Sequence record: OQ599310
Strand: one strand, 5' to 3'
Source of the DNA: Escherichia phage 55
Length of the DNA: 64,000 nt
Positions 35,984-43,582 of this stretch are shown here, in pieces. The first letter of the stretch is position 1, and each line of letters begins with the position of its first letter. The translations under genes and the position numbers were made by a program. The notes beneath the pieces were generated by a model, which was not told the DNA's origin, did no database searches, and saw only the letters and a program-made list of their open reading frames with translations.

Positions 35984-36163
35984 ATGGCAAAACAAGCTAA
36001 AGCAAAGAAAGCAGTTGAAAAGAAAGTTGATGGTACCTCTAAACGCGCTGGATACAAGCGTGGGTCGAACTCTCGTATTAATCAAACAGTTGAGAAGATC
36101 ATGCGCAGAGCACGTGCAGTTCTTCGAGATGATGCTTCTCGTTTTGGAAAGGTTGTTGCATAA
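35984..36163 (+). CDS. small basic protein (59 aa; MAKQAKAKKAVEKKVDGTSKRAGYKRGSNSR...), 30.9-position
   Basis: Not in ORF track; SD-like aagagaatttataATG; highly basic, likely nucleic-acid binding; followed by a terminator. Confidence 0.35.
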   Translation: MAKQAKAKKAVEKKVDGTSKRAGYKRGSNSRINQTVEKIMRRARAVLRDDASRFGKVVA

Positions 36164-36168
36164 TTTTA

Positions 36169-36186
36169 GGGAGACTTCGGTCTCCC
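36169..36186 (+). terminator. hairpin GGGAGAC-UUCG-GUCUCCC followed by TTTT
   Basis: Identical hairpin to 20702-20719. Confidence 0.7.
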
Positions 36187-36223
36187 TTTTGTGCGTTTAG
36201 GGCAGAAAAAGTTTAAAAAAGAT

Positions 36224-36252
36224 GTTTACTCTCCTGTAGGATGTGTTACTAT
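36224..36252 (+). promoter_or_regulatory. T4-type early promoter (GTTTAC, 17 bp, TGTGTTACTAT)
   Basis: GTTTAC 36224-36229; TACTAT 36247-36252. Confidence 0.55.
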
Positions 36253-36293
36253 AGACTTGTACCACCTAATCAATAAAACAACCGGAGAATAAA

Positions 36294-36665
36294 ATGAACA
36301 CTATCAATTTAAATGCTACAATTAAATGCCGTGACCATGACGGATATAAATCTCAAGTTGTTAATGAGTTACAGTGGATGGTTCGTTCAGTTCAAGGTGA
36401 TGTGGTTTATTGTACAACTCCTGATGGCCCTTCAGATGATTTTTGTTATCATATCGAAATCGAAAACTTTTTCACTGGTGAAATTTACCGTCTGAATTCT
36501 ACAGTTTATGGCTGTATTCGTTCTAAAACTTATGAAGATGAAGAAACTGGTTACTCTGAAGATGTTGTATGGTACGAAAATGCCAGAAATCGCGCAGAGT
36601 CATTAATCGAGAAGATTAAAGCAAAAGGTGTTATTGATTCAGCTAAGTGGACAAAAATCAAATAA
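36294..36665 (+). CDS. hypothetical protein (123 aa), 30.x-position
   Basis: ORF track; SD ggagaataaaATG. Confidence 0.5.
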   Translation: MNTINLNATIKCRDHDGYKSQVVNELQWMVRSVQGDVVYCTTPDGPSDDFCYHIEIENFFTGEIYRLNSTVYGCIRSKTYEDEETGYSEDVVWYENARNRAESLIEKIKAKGVIDSAKWTKIK

Positions 36666-36669
36666 AAAT

Positions 36670-36709
36670 GTTTACTTTGGTACAGGATGTGTTATTATAT
36701 ACCTGTACC
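36670..36709 (+). promoter_or_regulatory. early-promoter cassette with palindrome (GTTTAC ... GGTACAGG-atgtgtTATTATata-CCTGTACC)
   Basis: GTTTAC 36670-36675; 8-bp inverted repeat 36679-36686/36702-36709 flanking -10 TATTAT 36693-36698. Confidence 0.55.
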
Positions 36710-36739
36710 AACAAACAACTTAAACATCTGGAGAATAAA

Positions 36740-37105
36740 ATGAACTACACCAACTTCGAACGCAAATATGTTTCTAACGGTATCCCAGGTTCTATCGATA
36801 TGGTTTGTTTGTGGAAGCATAAAAATGGTGCAGTTTGTGAAATCGAACAGTGCATGACTCCTAATTACGTTTATATGCGATTTGAAAATGGCATCACGGT
36901 TTCAATCACGATGGAAGGTTCCAACTTCAAAATTGCATTAGATGACGATTTCCGTCAGCGTGATTTAGGTACTCATCCTTGCTGGAATGGTGATAATCGT
37001 AAACTTCTGGTTAAAACTTGGATTCGTCATATCCTGAGTAACCGAGCTAAACCTGAACATCTCGAAGCAATCTTTGATGTAGTTCTTAATGAATTCGATA
37101 TCTAA
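36740..37105 (+). CDS. hypothetical protein (121 aa), 30.x-position
   Basis: Start moved to ATG 36740 (SD ggagaataaaATG) downstream of the promoter cassette. Confidence 0.5.
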   Translation: MNYTNFERKYVSNGIPGSIDMVCLWKHKNGAVCEIEQCMTPNYVYMRFENGITVSITMEGSNFKIALDDDFRQRDLGTHPCWNGDNRKLLVKTWIRHILSNRAKPEHLEAIFDVVLNEFDI

Positions 37106-37112
37106 TTTAACT

Positions 37113-37128
37113 GGGAGCTTCGGCTCCC
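37113..37128 (+). terminator. hairpin GGGAGC-UUCG-GCUCCC
   Basis: Perfect 6-bp stem with UUCG loop after the stop at 37105. Confidence 0.6.
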
Positions 37129-37141
37129 TATTGAGGAAATT

Positions 37142-37756
37142 ATGTTTAAAGTTAATACTTTTTATAAAATGAATTTTAAAAATGGGGATATTACTCCACG
37201 CCTTAAAAACATGTTCTCATATGACCTTATCGAGCCTTTTGAAGTTTTAGAAGTTACTGATGCCGGCTCGGTTTGTGAAATTAGAACTTCTGAAGGTAAA
37301 ATTTATCAGGCAGGTGTTGGTAAATTTAGTAATTGTTTTTCTTTAATATTCTCGACCGATTTAGATGAGCATTTTATTGAATGTCCTAACCCTAAGGTCC
37401 ACGAAGTTCCGCATCAAGAAACTAAGAAAAATGGCCCGCATGAATATACGAAGGTTGAAACTCCTCACGGCGTTATGTGGCGACATAACTCTCCTTTCGG
37501 AAGTAAAGGAACATTTGCTCAACTGCCTAAACCTTATGACGATGAAAAATACATCGTCGCCTTTTTATCTGAACAGGGTACTCAAGACCGTGGATGTCAA
37601 CGAAGTGGTTTACTAAGTGAACTTGAAGCTCATAACCAAGCACGTGAATTCGTTGAGAAAAATCCTGGTTCTGAAGCTCTAGTCATGAAAGCAATTACTC
37701 AATATATCACTGCTCAACCTGTTGTTCATCCGGTAGAAATTAATTTCATTAAGTAG
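37142..37756 (+). CDS. hypothetical protein (204 aa), 30.x-position
   Basis: ORF track; SD gaggaaattATG. Confidence 0.5.
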   Translation: MFKVNTFYKMNFKNGDITPRLKNMFSYDLIEPFEVLEVTDAGSVCEIRTSEGKIYQAGVGKFSNCFSLIFSTDLDEHFIECPNPKVHEVPHQETKKNGPHEYTKVETPHGVMWRHNSPFGSKGTFAQLPKPYDDEKYIVAFLSEQGTQDRGCQRSGLLSELEAHNQAREFVEKNPGSEALVMKAITQYITAQPVVHPVEINFIK

Positions 37757-37786
37757 TTTACATCCAAGGACGGATTAGAGTATAAT
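37756..37786 (+). promoter_or_regulatory. early promoter (GTTTAC, 19 bp, TATAAT)
   Basis: GTTTAC 37756-37761; TATAAT 37781-37786. Confidence 0.45.
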
Positions 37787-37810
37787 GATTTCTTTAGTAA
37801 GTGGAAAAAT

Positions 37811-38008
37811 ATGAAATTTTTAATAGCACAAACAGTCCAATTAAAAGGTGTTGGAATTCCTGGGGTGATTTTTAAAGTTCTCCCTGAATTTAAAACCGGC
37901 GCTGGAATTATCAATGAAGCGTATGCTGTTCAATGGGTTGATTGGACTTCTGACATACGTATGGGTAAAGAGTTATCTCCTATTAAAGGGTTGAAACATG
38001 TTGAATAA
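37811..38008 (+). CDS. hypothetical protein (65 aa)
   Basis: ORF track. Confidence 0.4.
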   Translation: MKFLIAQTVQLKGVGIPGVIFKVLPEFKTGAGIINEAYAVQWVDWTSDIRMGKELSPIKGLKHVE

Positions 38009-38210
38009 ATTAATCCAGAAATTGTTAGGTACAGAAATGGTTGAAGTTACGTATCGTGTGACTGATGTAAGCCCATGGACCCGAAAAGTTGAACCATATA
38101 CTAAAACAATTAAAATGCTGAAATATGACGGTGGATTATCTATCAAAGACCGTCTACCGGCTTATGGTCATTGGGCTGATGTTGAAATTATAAGTGTTAA
38201 AGATGTCTGA
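37998..38210 (+). CDS. hypothetical protein (70 aa)
   Basis: ORF track. Confidence 0.4.
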   Translation: MLNKLIQKLLGTEMVEVTYRVTDVSPWTRKVEPYTKTIKMLKYDGGLSIKDRLPAYGHWADVEIISVKDV

Positions 38211-38661
38211 GTTAGAGATTAGAAGCAATTTCAAATGGCCGTCATGTGCATTAAGTAATTTCGCCCAATGGCCTTTTGTTATGGATGGTATTCAATTCGG
38301 AGGTCTTGAAGGATTTCTCCAAGGATGTAAGGTGAAAAATGTTGAACAACAAAGACGTATATTTGGGCTGTCAGGACTGGCCGCACAGCAAGCTGGAAGG
38401 TCTTATGCAAGAGCTCAGGACCATGGGACTCTCTTCTGGTTAGGAGTTCCATTTTCAAGATACTCTGAAGCATGGAAAGAATTATATACAAATGCATATT
38501 TTGAAGCAGCGATCCAAAACAAGGGGTTTCGCGATGCCTTACAAGCCTCTAAAGGAAAAATTTTGAAGCACAGCATGGCCAGCCACCTAACAAAAGATGA
38601 TACAATATTAACTGAAGCTGAATTTATTGATGTGTTAAACCTATTAAGAGACTCTTTATGA
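38194..38661 (+). CDS. NADAR / YbiA-like (DUF1768) domain protein
   Basis: 155 aa; LSNFAQWPF followed by an acidic/aromatic and Lys segment (GGLEGFLQGCKVK) resembles the E. coli YbiA FSNFAAWP...EHYFQAQKF core, recalled from memory. Confidence 0.55.
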   Translation: MLKMSELEIRSNFKWPSCALSNFAQWPFVMDGIQFGGLEGFLQGCKVKNVEQQRRIFGLSGLAAQQAGRSYARAQDHGTLFWLGVPFSRYSEAWKELYTNAYFEAAIQNKGFRDALQASKGKILKHSMASHLTKDDTILTEAEFIDVLNLLRDSL

Positions 38662-39482
38662 AGCCTACTATTTTGACTGATATTGATGGTGTATGTTTAA
38701 GCTGGCAATCTGGACTTCCTTATTTTGCCCAAAAATATAATCTTCCATTAGAACATATTTTAAAAATGATTCAGGACGAAAAATTTATTTCTCCTGGTAA
38801 ACTGTTCAATACCGACGATAACCTTGGTAAACAATTAATAGAAAAATATAATCGCTCTGATTTTATTCGTTACTTAGCGCCTTATTCGGATGCTCTTCGA
38901 GTTATCAATAAACTAAAAGAAGACTATAATTTTGTAGCCGTGACGGCGCTAGGTGATTCAATTGATGCTCGATTGAATAGACAATTTAATTTGAATGCTT
39001 TGTTCCCAGGCGCTTTCTCTGAAGTAATGATGTGTGGTCATGATTCTTCAAAGGAACAATTATTCGAACTAGCTAAAACAAAATATAACGTGATTTGTTA
39101 CGTTGACGATTTAGCTCATCATTGTGACCATGCGGCAGAAATTCTTAATGTACCGATTTATTGGTTGGCTCGTGGTGAACGTGATGATATTCCTCGCACT
39201 GCACAACGTGTACACACGTGGGATGATATTGAATCTCGTTTGGTTCTGCCTAAGAATAATTCAGATTCAGATCGTGAAGACCTTTTAAAACGATTGGCGG
39301 ATTTGCTTAAAGAATCTGGTGCAACAAGTCCAGGTGCATGGCCTAATCAAATTGGTGGCCCCTCGACAACACGTACTCCATATACCTGGCGAACCCCAGG
39401 ACCAACTGATATGCAGCCGTGGTGGACGATTCAAAACTTTCCTTTAGATTCGTCTAAATGGACTTGGTCTATAAATTGTTAA
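38658..39482 (+). CDS. HAD-superfamily hydrolase-like protein with Trp/Pro-rich C-terminal tail
   Basis: 274 aa; N-terminal DxDGV motif (ILTDIDGVCLSW) and later VDD motif; last about 50 aa low-complexity (PGAWPNQIGGPSTTRTPYTWRTPGPTDMQPWWTIQNF). Confidence 0.5.
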   Translation: MKPTILTDIDGVCLSWQSGLPYFAQKYNLPLEHILKMIQDEKFISPGKLFNTDDNLGKQLIEKYNRSDFIRYLAPYSDALRVINKLKEDYNFVAVTALGDSIDARLNRQFNLNALFPGAFSEVMMCGHDSSKEQLFELAKTKYNVICYVDDLAHHCDHAAEILNVPIYWLARGERDDIPRTAQRVHTWDDIESRLVLPKNNSDSDREDLLKRLADLLKESGATSPGAWPNQIGGPSTTRTPYTWRTPGPTDMQPWWTIQNFPLDSSKWTWSINC

Positions 39483-39491
39483 GGGTTAATT

Positions 39492-39761
39492 ATGTTTGTA
39501 GTTCATGATATTACAGATGGCAAAAACACCACACGTGACTACGGTCATGTTAACATGTTCTTTCGAGACTGGCCGGTGTTTCGTTCAGTAAAAGACGCAG
39601 AAATATTTAAAGAGTGTGTTGAACAAGGGTTCATCTACATTTCAGAATATTATGTTGAAGGACTCGGTAAATGGATTACCACTTATCAGAAAACGCTGAA
39701 ATCGCTTCTAGATGAAGTGGCTTATAATAGAACCGTAACCAAAATCGAGGACATCAAATGA
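39492..39761 (+). CDS. hypothetical protein (89 aa), 30.1-position
   Basis: ORF track; overlaps the ligase start (ATGA). Confidence 0.45.
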   Translation: MFVVHDITDGKNTTRDYGHVNMFFRDWPVFRSVKDAEIFKECVEQGFIYISEYYVEGLGKWITTYQKTLKSLLDEVAYNRTVTKIEDIK

Positions 39762-41251
39762 TTTTAGATATTTTAAACCAAATAGCTGCGATCGGTTCTA
39801 CTAAAACAAAACAGGAAATCCTTAAGAAAAATAAGGACAACAAATTACTTGAACGTGTGTATCGTTTAACATATGCACGTGGTATTCAGTATTATATTAA
39901 GAAATGGCCGGGACCAGGTGAAAGGTCCCAAGCATATGGTCTTCTTGAATTAGATGACATGTTGGATTTTATTGAGTTCACATTAGCCACTCGTAAACTC
40001 ACTGGTAATGCTGCAATTAAAGAGCTCATGGGTTATATCGCTGACGGTAAACCTGATGATGTAGAAGTCCTTCGTCGTGTAATGATGCGAGACCTTGAAG
40101 TAGGTGCTTCAGTGTCTATCGCGAATAAGGTGTGGCCTGGACTTATTCAATTGCAGCCACAGATGTTAGCATCTGCATATGATGAGAAATTGATTACTAA
40201 AAATATTAAATGGCCTGCATTTGCCCAATTAAAGGCAGATGGTGCTCGTTGTTTCGCTGAAGTTCGCGATGATGGCGTTCAATTCTTTTCTCGTGCCGGT
40301 AACGAATACCATGGTCTTACTCTATTAGCAGATGAACTAATGGAAATGACTAAAGAAGCTCGTGAAAGACACCCTAATGGGGTTTTAATCGACGGTGAAT
40401 TAGTTTATCATTCATTTGATATTAAAAAGGCTGTGAGCTCAGGAAATGACCTGTCGTTCTTATTTGGCGATAATGAAGAATCCGAAGAAGTACAAGTTGC
40501 AGACCGTAGCACTTCAAATGGTTTAGCAAATAAATCTCTTCAAGGGACTATTTCTCCTAAAGAAGCGGAAGGTATGGTTCTTCAAGCCTGGGACTATGTT
40601 CCTTTAGATGAAGTCTACTCTGATGGCAAAATTAAAGGTCAGAAATACGATGTTCGTTTTGCTGCTCTTGAAAATATGGCTGAAGGCTTTAAGCGAATTG
40701 AGCCAATTGAAAATCAGTTAGTTCGTAATCTTGACGAAGCTAAAGTGGTTTATAAAAAATATGTTGACCAAGGTCTTGAAGGTATTATCCTTAAAAACCG
40801 TGATTCATACTGGGAAAACAAACGCTCTAAGAACCTAATTAAATTTAAAGAAGTTATTGATATCGCTTTAGAAGTTGTAGGATACTATGAACACTCTAAA
40901 GACCCTAACAAATTAGGTGGTGTCGAACTCGTATCACGTTGTCGTCGTATTACAACCGATTGTGGTTCAGGGTTTAAAGATACAACTCATAAAACAGTTG
41001 ATGGTGTAAAGGTTCTTATTCCTTTAGATGAGCGTCATGATTTGGACCGTGAACGATTAATGACCGAAGCTCGTGAAGGTAAATTGATTGGACGTATTGC
41101 CGATTGTGAATGCAATGGTTGGGTTCATTCTAAAGGACGTGAAGGCACTGTAGGTATTTTCCTTCCAATTATTAAAGGGTTCCGTTTTGATAAAACAGAA
41201 GCGGATTCATTTGAAGACGTATTTGGACCGTGGTCCCAGACAGGTTTATAA
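39758..41251 (+). CDS. 30: ATP-dependent DNA ligase (gp30)
   Basis: 497 aa; adenylation motif KADGAR; size as T4 ligase (487 aa). Confidence 0.93.
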   Translation: MILDILNQIAAIGSTKTKQEILKKNKDNKLLERVYRLTYARGIQYYIKKWPGPGERSQAYGLLELDDMLDFIEFTLATRKLTGNAAIKELMGYIADGKPDDVEVLRRVMMRDLEVGASVSIANKVWPGLIQLQPQMLASAYDEKLITKNIKWPAFAQLKADGARCFAEVRDDGVQFFSRAGNEYHGLTLLADELMEMTKEARERHPNGVLIDGELVYHSFDIKKAVSSGNDLSFLFGDNEESEEVQVADRSTSNGLANKSLQGTISPKEAEGMVLQAWDYVPLDEVYSDGKIKGQKYDVRFAALENMAEGFKRIEPIENQLVRNLDEAKVVYKKYVDQGLEGIILKNRDSYWENKRSKNLIKFKEVIDIALEVVGYYEHSKDPNKLGGVELVSRCRRITTDCGSGFKDTTHKTVDGVKVLIPLDERHDLDRERLMTEAREGKLIGRIADCECNGWVHSKGREGTVGIFLPIIKGFRFDKTEADSFEDVFGPWSQTGL

Positions 41252-41439
41252 TGAAAGCTTATTTAGAAACAGTTATTGTAGCTAAGAAGGATGGTGGAGA
41301 TGTTTCCACCTCTTGCTCTCAGATTATATTAGATTTTCCTAATGAAAATTCGTATCGGGTTTTCGTAGATAACGTTAATGGGTACGAAAAAGGCCCTAAT
41401 TTTGAAGTTTATCGTACTTTGCTCCCGATTGTGGATTAA
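41251..41439 (+). CDS. hypothetical protein (62 aa), alt.-1-position
   Basis: Start moved to ATG 41251 (TAATG overlap with the ligase stop). Confidence 0.4.
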   Translation: MKAYLETVIVAKKDGGDVSTSCSQIILDFPNENSYRVFVDNVNGYEKGPNFEVYRTLLPIVD

Positions 41440-41454
41440 GAGCCTTCGGGCTCT
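41439..41454 (+). terminator. hairpin AGAGCC-UUCG-GGCUCU followed by TTTTT
   Basis: 6-bp stem, UUCG loop, T-run. Confidence 0.6.
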
Positions 41455-41494
41455 TTTTGGCATAAATATAAATTATTACTAAAAGGAAAACACT

Positions 41495-43582
41495 ATGTCT
41501 GAACAATTAAATGAAGTGTTTGAATCTGAAGGCAGTCTTCCTGTCGTCAATTTGAACCCTAAAGCTAAAGTTCCACAAGTCTGGAAAATTGGTGATATCG
41601 ATACAAACATCGTAGTTCGTTTATTCTCTTACCTTTCCGAAGGCGACGCTGTAAAACAAGTTAAACTTGGCGACAAATACGCTCATGTTGTTATTATGAG
41701 TCTGTCTGAAAAGGGTAATCTCGCTGAATTGAAAAATGGCCTTGGTCCTGCTCCTATTGATGCAATCAACACTATTTTCAATACAGTATATGAACAGGTT
41801 AAAGCTCTTCGTATGGATGCAGTTCTGTTCCGGTTCCCTACCAAGAAATTGAAAGGACGTGGACAACAGCTTCAAACTCTTCTTGCTCGTTTAGTTTCTT
41901 CTAAAACCGGTGGTCGTTTTAAAGTATTGTCGGCAATGTATCAATTCACAGGTAAACACACCTATGTGATGATGGTTCGTAAAAATGCCAACATTGAAGA
42001 TATTAAAGGCATCCCTAACATTAACACAGAGTTGTACACGAAAGTAGATTCTGATGTTGGCGAAGTTTATGTGAGTAAAAAGACTGGTGAAAAGGTCACC
42101 AAAGAAACGGCTATCGCTGGTTCTATTGCTGCTGTAGAAGAAAAACGTAAAGATAAGCCTGTTATTGCTCGTACTAAAATTTCTCGTCGTGCTATTGCAG
42201 CAAGTCAATCTTTAGAAGCTGACCGACAAGAAGGTGAGTTATTCCAGAAATACGAAAATTCTGCTAAAGAAGTTAGTGGCCCAGCTACAGCCGAATTACT
42301 TCCTGAAGCATATGAAATTGTACTAGCCCAAGCATCGTCCACAGCAAAAGGCACTTTAGTTGCTGATATCGAAAATAAGATTTATAATCGTATTGATGAA
42401 TCCTTTAAATTTGCCGATGAAGTTTCTTATGGTAGTGTTATTAAGCCGACTTTAGAAAAGTTTGCTAAGAAAATTAAAACTGAAAAAACAACATCTGTTA
42501 AAGCATTAGCTGCTTTTGTTGAAGCTGCAAATGAAATTGCAGACTCTATTAAAGACGAATGGTTTGAAGATTTTAGACGTGATAATTTCCAACTGCCTGA
42601 CGACGTTTTAGCTGAAGTATCTGAAAGAACTTGGAAACAACGTAAATCAGCGTTCTTGTCTAATGTGATGTATACTTATGCCCGAGAATCGGCTAGAGGC
42701 ACCTTTAATATAACAATGAATCGGGACCCTAAACAATACTCTGTTGCTGAAAAACGAGCTATTCGTGAATATGCCTCTTCTGCATATACAGATATCAATA
42801 ATATGTTGTTAGGTCGTTATAAACCAGATTTTTACGATGTTGCGGATGAAGATGAAGTTAAACGCGCTATTGATGGTCTTGATTCGGCGTTTTTAAATGG
42901 AGACCGTTTACCTGAAGGACTAACGTTATATAGAGCTCAGTCTATCAGAATGCCTATTTACGAAGCAATGGTTAAAAATAAGGTATTCTACTTCAGAAAC
43001 TATGTTTCCACTTCACTAGCTCCTATTATTTTCGGTGGGTTTAAAGAGAACGTTGCCCTTGGACTTGCTCCTGAAGAAGTTCGCAAAGAGCTTAACATTG
43101 ACAATAATGACGAAGGTGTTACTATTTCTCCTAGTCAAGTAAGAACAGCTATGCATGCACCAGAACAAATCCGTGTTAACGTTGGATGGGCTATCGATGA
43201 CGCCCATAAAGTTAACGTGATTTATCCAGGACAGTTGAGTAATCACCCTAATGAGCAAGAAATTATTTTGCCTAGAGGCATTCTCTTGCAGATAAATAAA
43301 ATTACAGATGCGTCATCTGACACCGGTGCAGGTTTAGAATCCAACCTTAAATTTATTCAAGCTGAAGTCATGTCCTCAGACCAGTTGGATGAAGCCGTCA
43401 TTTATGATGGTGATGTTCTCATGGAAACAGGCGAGGTGGTTGCTATGACGGGTGAAATCGAATCGGATGAGCCGGTATCGTTCTCCTCATTTGTAGAAAA
43501 AACTAGTGCACCTAAAGGTTTGAAATTGTTAGCATCTTTAATGGATTTAGAATCAGTTCCGTTTAAATTTGTCCAAGGATAG
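41495..43582 (+). CDS. alt: Alt-like ADP-ribosyltransferase (head-packaged)
   Basis: 695 aa; size and position as T4 Alt (682 aa) between gene 30 and gene 54; catalytic motifs not verified. Confidence 0.75.
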   Translation: MSEQLNEVFESEGSLPVVNLNPKAKVPQVWKIGDIDTNIVVRLFSYLSEGDAVKQVKLGDKYAHVVIMSLSEKGNLAELKNGLGPAPIDAINTIFNTVYEQVKALRMDAVLFRFPTKKLKGRGQQLQTLLARLVSSKTGGRFKVLSAMYQFTGKHTYVMMVRKNANIEDIKGIPNINTELYTKVDSDVGEVYVSKKTGEKVTKETAIAGSIAAVEEKRKDKPVIARTKISRRAIAASQSLEADRQEGELFQKYENSAKEVSGPATAELLPEAYEIVLAQASSTAKGTLVADIENKIYNRIDESFKFADEVSYGSVIKPTLEKFAKKIKTEKTTSVKALAAFVEAANEIADSIKDEWFEDFRRDNFQLPDDVLAEVSERTWKQRKSAFLSNVMYTYARESARGTFNITMNRDPKQYSVAEKRAIREYASSAYTDINNMLLGRYKPDFYDVADEDEVKRAIDGLDSAFLNGDRLPEGLTLYRAQSIRMPIYEAMVKNKVFYFRNYVSTSLAPIIFGGFKENVALGLAPEEVRKELNIDNNDEGVTISPSQVRTAMHAPEQIRVNVGWAIDDAHKVNVIYPGQLSNHPNEQEIILPRGILLQINKITDASSDTGAGLESNLKFIQAEVMSSDQLDEAVIYDGDVLMETGEVVAMTGEIESDEPVSFSSFVEKTSAPKGLKLLASLMDLESVPFKFVQG

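Follow-up and report, generated by a model that had tools for sequence, protein, structure and literature searches.

Introduction

The window analysed here is a 64,000-nucleotide stretch of DNA from Escherichia phage 55 (OQ599310), and a small gene in its 30.x string raises the question of which ADP-ribose adduct the encoded protein would remove, and for what purpose. The preliminary description had recognised an SNFAQWP motif and, from it, a NADAR/YbiA-like (DUF1768) protein, for which it proposed either a counter-defence role against DarTG-like systems or the management of the phage's own Alt-type ADP-ribosylation.

Results

Extent of the adfN coding sequence

The + frame ORF at 38194..38661 encodes 155 aa if counted from its GTG codon and contains SNFAQWP (residues 18-24 in the numbering from the ATG), followed by LEGFLQGCK. 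The ORF call and the match to PF08010 confirm the reading frame and motif described previously, with the start shifted downstream (Table 1). The PF08010 score, the number of phage records with a homolog, and the preponderance of third-position differences from T4 (see below) put the ORF well outside what chance would produce. The ATG at 38203, which yields 152 aa, is more likely to be the adfN start than the GTG at 38194, because it agrees with the T4 annotation of 30.3 (128307..128765, 459 nt, 152 aa), with the gap-free alignment to the T4 protein, and with the published residue numbers E36 and K43, which land on Glu and Lys with the ATG numbering only (PMC11257639). The GTG start was rejected on the same annotation and numbering.

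Adjacent genes overlap on both sides of adfN: its ATG with the stop codon of 30.4, upstream (ATGTCTGA), and its stop codon with the start codon of 30.2 (ATGA). T4 early gene strings are typically tightly packed, as in these 30.4/30.3/30.2 overlaps. The sigma-70-like match at 37757-37786 is, by its agreement with the consensus, a candidate early promoter of the 30.5-30.4-30.3-30.2 string.

Table 1. Features of the adfN locus, in window coordinates
Feature	Position	Strand	Basis and remarks
Sigma-70-like promoter match, TTTACA-18-TATAAT, 11/12	37757..37786	+	Consensus scan only; best upstream match, ahead of 30.5-30.4-30.3-30.2
Gene 30.4 homolog, 70 aa	37998..38210	+	ORF; phrog_2042; stop overlaps adfN start
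GTG-TTA-AAG, three extra codons of the preliminary description	38194..38202	+	Inside the 3' end of 30.4; translation as part of adfN improbable
adfN / gene 30.3 CDS, phage-type NADAR ADP-ribosylglycohydrolase	38203..38661	+	ORF, PF08010, T4 gp30.3 alignment; 152 aa plus TGA stop
SNFAQWP motif, S18-P24	38254..38274	+	L17-S18-N19-F20 invariant; aligns with FSNFAAWP of E. coli YbiA
Glu36 codon GAA, catalytic Glu	38308..38310	+	Invariant; equivalent to PnNADAR E43, E. coli C7 NADAR E88, YbiA E48
Lys43 codon AAG, phosphate/adenine-binding Lys	38329..38331	+	Invariant; equivalent to PnNADAR K50, C7 K95, YbiA K55
His123 codon CAC, phage-NADAR signature, last strand	38569..38571	+	Invariant in 47-48 sequences; Glu in YbiA family, Asp in DarG1
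C-terminal alpha-helix, residues 138-151	38614..38655	+	Helix of predicted model, pLDDT 91-98; intact
Gene 30.2 homolog, 274 aa, HAD-like with DIDGV motif	38658..39482	+	phrog_420, E = 1e-78; HAD_2, E = 0.02 (weak); 70% identity to T4 gp30.2

Family membership and spread among phages

The gp30.3 homolog of the window matches PF08010 (Phage_30_3) along profile positions 1-138 of 138 (E = 4e-69; 231.2 bits, against a gathering cut-off of 36 bits), and also matches phrog_652, which is labelled "unknown function." Homologs are present in 1510 phage records, ranging from Escherichia to Aeromonas, Vibrio, Acinetobacter, and Ralstonia phages, and nearly all of those sampled carry the label "hypothetical protein." When searched against 1.84 billion cluster representatives, the family profile retrieves 1657 proteins at E <= 0.001 and 462 at E <= 1e-30. 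Some database homologs are named "YbiA (DUF1768 family)" by JGI, and one of these carries both PF08010 and PF08719. By all the sequence and structure criteria tested, the window protein falls within the phage NADAR/gp30.3/AdfN family, and it belongs to the NADAR superfamily (PF08719, DUF1768, COG3236).

Among the database entries, several are shortened to fragments of 83-126 aa. In Escherichia phage CAU_ECP01, the annotated start lies at an internal codon at 4281 (126 aa), within a 152-codon frame that is open from 4203 (4203-4661), and other 126-aa entries may stem from similar start-site miscalls. Among metagenomic proteins, PF08010-type NADAR domains are joined, in putative fusions (P0154, P0162, P0192, P0210, and P0236), to GDSL lipase/acylhydrolase, LGT (prolipoprotein diacylglyceryl transferase), BspA-type leucine-rich repeats, and an FtsW/RodA-like membrane domain. 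A further metagenomic protein of 480 aa (P0107) has three matched stretches, suggesting tandem NADAR domains.

The NADAR fold

Searched as a single sequence, the gp30.3 homolog has no match to PF08719 (NADAR/DUF1768) at E <= 1 in Pfam, to PDB sequences at E <= 10 with phmmer, to NCBIfam, or to the PADLOC defence-system models, DarG included. The family does reach NADAR: 19 of its 48 aligned members match PF08719 (best E = 1.5e-7), the family profile retrieves E. coli YbiA (2b3w) from the PDB at E = 0.001, and hhalign pairs the family with YbiA over residues 16-122 at 93.9% probability (E = 1.6e-7). The direct profile match to DUF1768, whose absence the preliminary description had named as a refutation of its assignment, is thus lacking for the single sequence, and the link to PF08719 and YbiA comes through the family profile, relatives of the protein, and the structure.

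An AlphaFold2 model of the adfN product, built on a 47-sequence alignment from which the T4 row was left out, has a pLDDT of 93.9 and a pTM of 0.89, and it displays the alpha-helical core flanked by small sheets that characterises NADAR. In structural alignments, identity to YbiA (2b3w) and to the Phytophthora nicotianae NADAR (PnNADAR; 8bau) is 19-21%. The NADAR link of gp30.3 is drawn from family profiles and this predicted structure, and on these we consider the relationship solid; profile comparison and model bear out the NADAR/YbiA-like fold claimed earlier.

Active-site residues and the C-terminal helix

The Glu and Lys of the NADAR active site, whose absence would have spoken against the earlier assignment, are both present and invariant in the family alignment. 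Indeed, E36, K43, and H123 are among 23 invariant columns, all of which are kept in the window allele. The spacing of E36 and K43 is seven residues, the same as that of E43 and K50 in PnNADAR, where these residues bind the distal ribose and the diphosphate/adenine, respectively (PMC11543638), and the pair is aligned with E48 and K55 of YbiA. In T4, E36A and K43A each abolish AdfN function (PMC11257639).

NADAR families differ in the last-strand residue at the third catalytic position: the YbiA family has Glu there, DarG1 NADARs have Asp, and phage NADARs have His (PMC11125620, PMC11543638, PMC12945103). The hhalign match ends at K122, paired with YbiA V124, and the next column pairs H123 with YbiA E125. 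From this one-column extension of the alignment, together with the literature, we infer that H123 is the counterpart of YbiA E125. In RB69, AdfN is inactivated by a frameshift that removes its last 15 residues and with them the terminal helix, which leaves that phage sensitive to DarTG1 (PMC11257639). Most of the helix at 138-151 in the window protein falls within the 15 residues that the RB69 frameshift deletes.

Divergence from T4 gp30.3 and selection

Aligned without gaps over 152/152 residues, the window protein and T4 gp30.3 are 96% identical. The genes are 90.2% identical in DNA, with 33 of the 45 nucleotide differences at third codon positions, and the codon changes comprise 31 synonymous and 6 non-synonymous ones. 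The six substitutions (T4 to window: R11K, R74H, P89E, V120I, I125M, and G128H) all lie outside the invariant columns. Because third-position differences and synonymous changes dominate to this extent, the comparison indicates purifying selection on a working adfN protein. Recent recombination or transfer was rejected as the source of the high similarity to T4, since DNA identity is only 90% and the differences are mostly at third positions.

The T4 annotation includes an internal, out-of-frame ORF of 75 aa, 30.3', which is broken by a stop codon in the window phage: the corresponding frame inside adfN (38339-38566, +) stops after 34 codons (MLNN...LSSG*). With this in-frame stop, 30.3' was rejected as part of the feature, and its non-conservation in so close a relative argues against a real 30.3' gene.

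The 30.x string and the neighbourhoods of homologs

Around adfN, the gene order is rIII, 30.9 ... 30.5, 30.4, 30.3, 30.2, 30.1, DNA ligase, alt.1, and alt. The region matches 742 T4-like records, with 96.6-98.4% DNA identity to the best of them. By tblastn, identity to T4 is 64% for DNA ligase, 58% for gp30.1, 70% for gp30.2, 46% for gp30.4, 64% for gp30.5, and 39% for the gp30.8-like protein, and AdfN, at 96%, is an island of conservation among far more diverged neighbours (window 36000-41500). That the T4-type ligase is only 64% identical in an otherwise closely related Tequatrovirus suggests mosaic replacement of the 30.x block.

A 204-aa ORF (37142-37756, +) occupies the place of T4 gene 30.6 (95 aa), finds no counterpart in the T4 30.x region by tblastn, and has no Pfam family; it looks like a variable cargo slot of the 30.x string. 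A terminator-like hairpin lies inside it at 37537-37559.

In Aeromonas, Vibrio, and Ralstonia phages, the homologs are found in a tRNA cluster, beside SbcCD-like genes, or among hypothetical genes. In Aeromonas phage 44RR2.8t.2, the AdfN homolog (3001-3450 of the analysed locus) lies between tRNA-Met and tRNA-Arg in a cluster of tRNA genes, a context unlike the 30.x string, and adfN therefore moves as a single unit.

Gene 30.2, directly downstream, encodes a protein with a HAD-type motif I (DIDGV) at residues 8-12 and a later VDD, a weak Pfam HAD_2 match (E = 0.02), and a homolog labelled 5' nucleotidase in one phage record. It is probably an active HAD phosphatase, translationally coupled to adfN. 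Homologs of gp30.2 are present in 1438 phage records and are spread over the genera much as those of AdfN are (1510 records; compared as totals). This similarity may come from the common descent of T4-like phages, and we draw no functional link from it. The adjacency of 30.2 and 30.3 is retained in an Acinetobacter phage and absent in the Aeromonas, Vibrio, and Ralstonia phages. That gp30.2 is the phage cofactor of AdfN, the two forming a module that removes and then disposes of ADP-ribose, is an improbable idea.

Discussion

A probable glycohydrolase acting against DarTG1

Phage crosses mapped resistance to DarTG1 to gene 30.3, which was renamed adfN (Johannesman, Carlson, LeRoux, bioRxiv 2024, PMC11257639; PMC12945103 cites it in its published form, Nat Commun 2025;16:1598). 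Deletion of adfN sensitises T4 and T2 to DarTG1 by about four logs, RB69 is rescued by ectopic AdfN, and purified T4 AdfN strips ADP-ribose from DarT1-modified DNA, while AdfN neither binds DarT1 nor counters DarTG2 (PMC11257639). In vitro, the phage enzyme hydrolyses guanine-ADPr and not thymidine-ADPr (PMC11125620), and removal of cytidine-ADPr is listed for the NADAR and YbiA families only, not for phage NADAR (summary table, PMC12945103). Furthermore, transposon sequencing found 30.3/adfN dispensable on K-12 and essential on DarTG1 hosts (HIDEN-SEQ preprint).

Together, these data make it very probable that the window gene encodes a functional AdfN, a minimal, core-only guanine-ADP-ribose DNA glycohydrolase of the NADAR fold that would repair the damage DarT1 inflicts on phage DNA. 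The present analysis shows the orthology to T4 AdfN, the fold, the conservation of the active-site residues, the intact length, and the purifying selection, and activity, specificity, and phenotype are taken from the T4 experiments; we infer that the 96%-identical window allele would behave as T4 AdfN does. The proposed counter-defence against DarT is thus supported by experiments on the T4 protein (PMC11257639, PMC11125620, HIDEN-SEQ preprint), and its target narrows from DarTG-like systems in general to DarTG1, with guanine-ADPr as the lesion, to the exclusion of DarTG2, which makes thymidine-ADPr.

In the mechanism that we propose, a DarTG1 host would release DarT1 upon infection, and ADP-ribosylation of guanine (at N2) in the phage DNA would block replication. 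AdfN made from the 30.x string would then cleave the N-glycosidic bond between guanine and ADP-ribose, restoring the DNA and allowing the phage to replicate. In the active site, the distal ribose would lie between Glu36 and His123, with Lys43 holding the diphosphate and adenine. AdfN would act catalytically on the DNA lesion and not through toxin binding. T4 AdfN fails to protect uninfected E. coli against DarT1 and gives T5 and Bas25 hardly any help (PMC11257639, PMC11125620); its activity in vivo is limited to T-even infection, for which the published candidate explanations are that it prefers hydroxymethyl-C DNA or that it needs a phage cofactor.

It is very unlikely that the enzyme instead manages ADP-ribosylation by the phage's own Alt, ModA, and ModB, acting on Arg-modified host proteins (RNA polymerase alpha) or on RNAylated proteins. 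The proximity of alt, about 2.6 kb downstream of adfN and in the same orientation, and the position of the homolog of Acinetobacter phage LemonAid, also near alt, would fit such a role, but the homologs of Aeromonas, Vibrio, and Ralstonia phages sit in unrelated neighbourhoods, and in T4 the effect of deletion is confined to DarTG1 hosts, the gene being dispensable on K-12. Moreover, the NADAR activities described in PMC11125620, PMC11543638, and PMC12945103, that of the T4 enzyme included, are all on base-linked ADP-ribose: every family acts on guanine in DNA and RNA, and some families outside the phages act on cytidine as well. The suggestion in the preliminary description of a manager of Alt-type modification is left without support.

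We give still less credence to a YbiA-like metabolite N-glycosidase, which during infection would cleave reactive intermediates of the riboflavin pathway or some other small molecule bearing ribose, given that the YbiA family is defined by its last-strand Glu, where the gp30.3 family has the invariant His of the phage signature, and that in T4 the enzyme works on ADP-ribosylated DNA and its phenotype is specific to DarTG1. A comparably minute chance attaches to the window allele being inactive or decaying, as in RB69, with the phage relying on other anti-DarT factors. The RB69 frameshift demonstrates that inactive alleles exist, short homologs of 83-126 aa are found in databases, and phages may do without the AdfN family on many hosts; the window protein, however, is full length and gap-free against T4, retains every one of the 23 invariant columns, has its C-terminal helix present and confidently modelled, and differs from T4 by 31 synonymous versus 6 non-synonymous changes.

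The role of adfN is already published knowledge, and the window gene adds no new biology to it. Its value lies in annotation, as nearly all sampled homologs are labelled "hypothetical protein" and single-sequence NADAR, NCBIfam, and PADLOC searches miss adfN; the recognition of NADAR from a short motif in the preliminary description was sound. The adfN label predicts that the window phage resists DarTG1-carrying hosts, which bears on predicting the host range of therapeutic T4-like phages.

Comparison with known systems

The window protein is no DarG1 antitoxin; its action would resemble that of DarG1, but it is an orphan enzyme of a lytic phage. DarG1 (the BC4488 family, including the Geobacter lovleyi NADAR, 8bat, and the E. 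coli C7 NADAR) is linked to DarT1, whereas the ORFs flanking adfN include no DarT gene, its neighbours being 30.4 (no Pfam family) and the HAD-like 30.2. In contrast to DarG1, the window protein lacks an N-terminal extension, its domain starting at residue ~3 of 152, carries His123 where DarG1 has Asp, and has no PADLOC match. T4 AdfN cannot substitute for DarG1 in uninfected cells (PMC11257639, PMC11125620). Nor, judged from the alignment, is the window protein a member of the YbiA family, as all aligned family members have His at the E125 column; YbiA (2b3w) has a housekeeping role in riboflavin metabolism (PMC11543638), and the Glu that defines its family is replaced by this His in the gp30.3 family.

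Other phage anti-DarT factors take part in the same arms race as AdfN and differ from it in mechanism, fold, or clade. AdfA (gp61.2) has no recognisable enzymatic domain and is a presumed toxin binder, the evolved RB69 AdfA variant R164H associating with DarT1 in a two-hybrid assay (PMC11257639). AdfM, the Tk.4 macrodomain directed against DarTG2, is the macrodomain counterpart for thymidine-ADPr (HIDEN-SEQ preprint) and differs from AdfN in fold and base specificity. NADAR-Bas32 and NADAR-Bas60 share the chemistry of AdfN, but belong to other NADAR clades and are not limited to T-even infection (PMC11257639). The closest counterpart is T4 AdfN itself (gp30.3, PF08010), which has the same length and genomic position as the window protein and shares with it E36, K43, H123, and the C-terminal helix.
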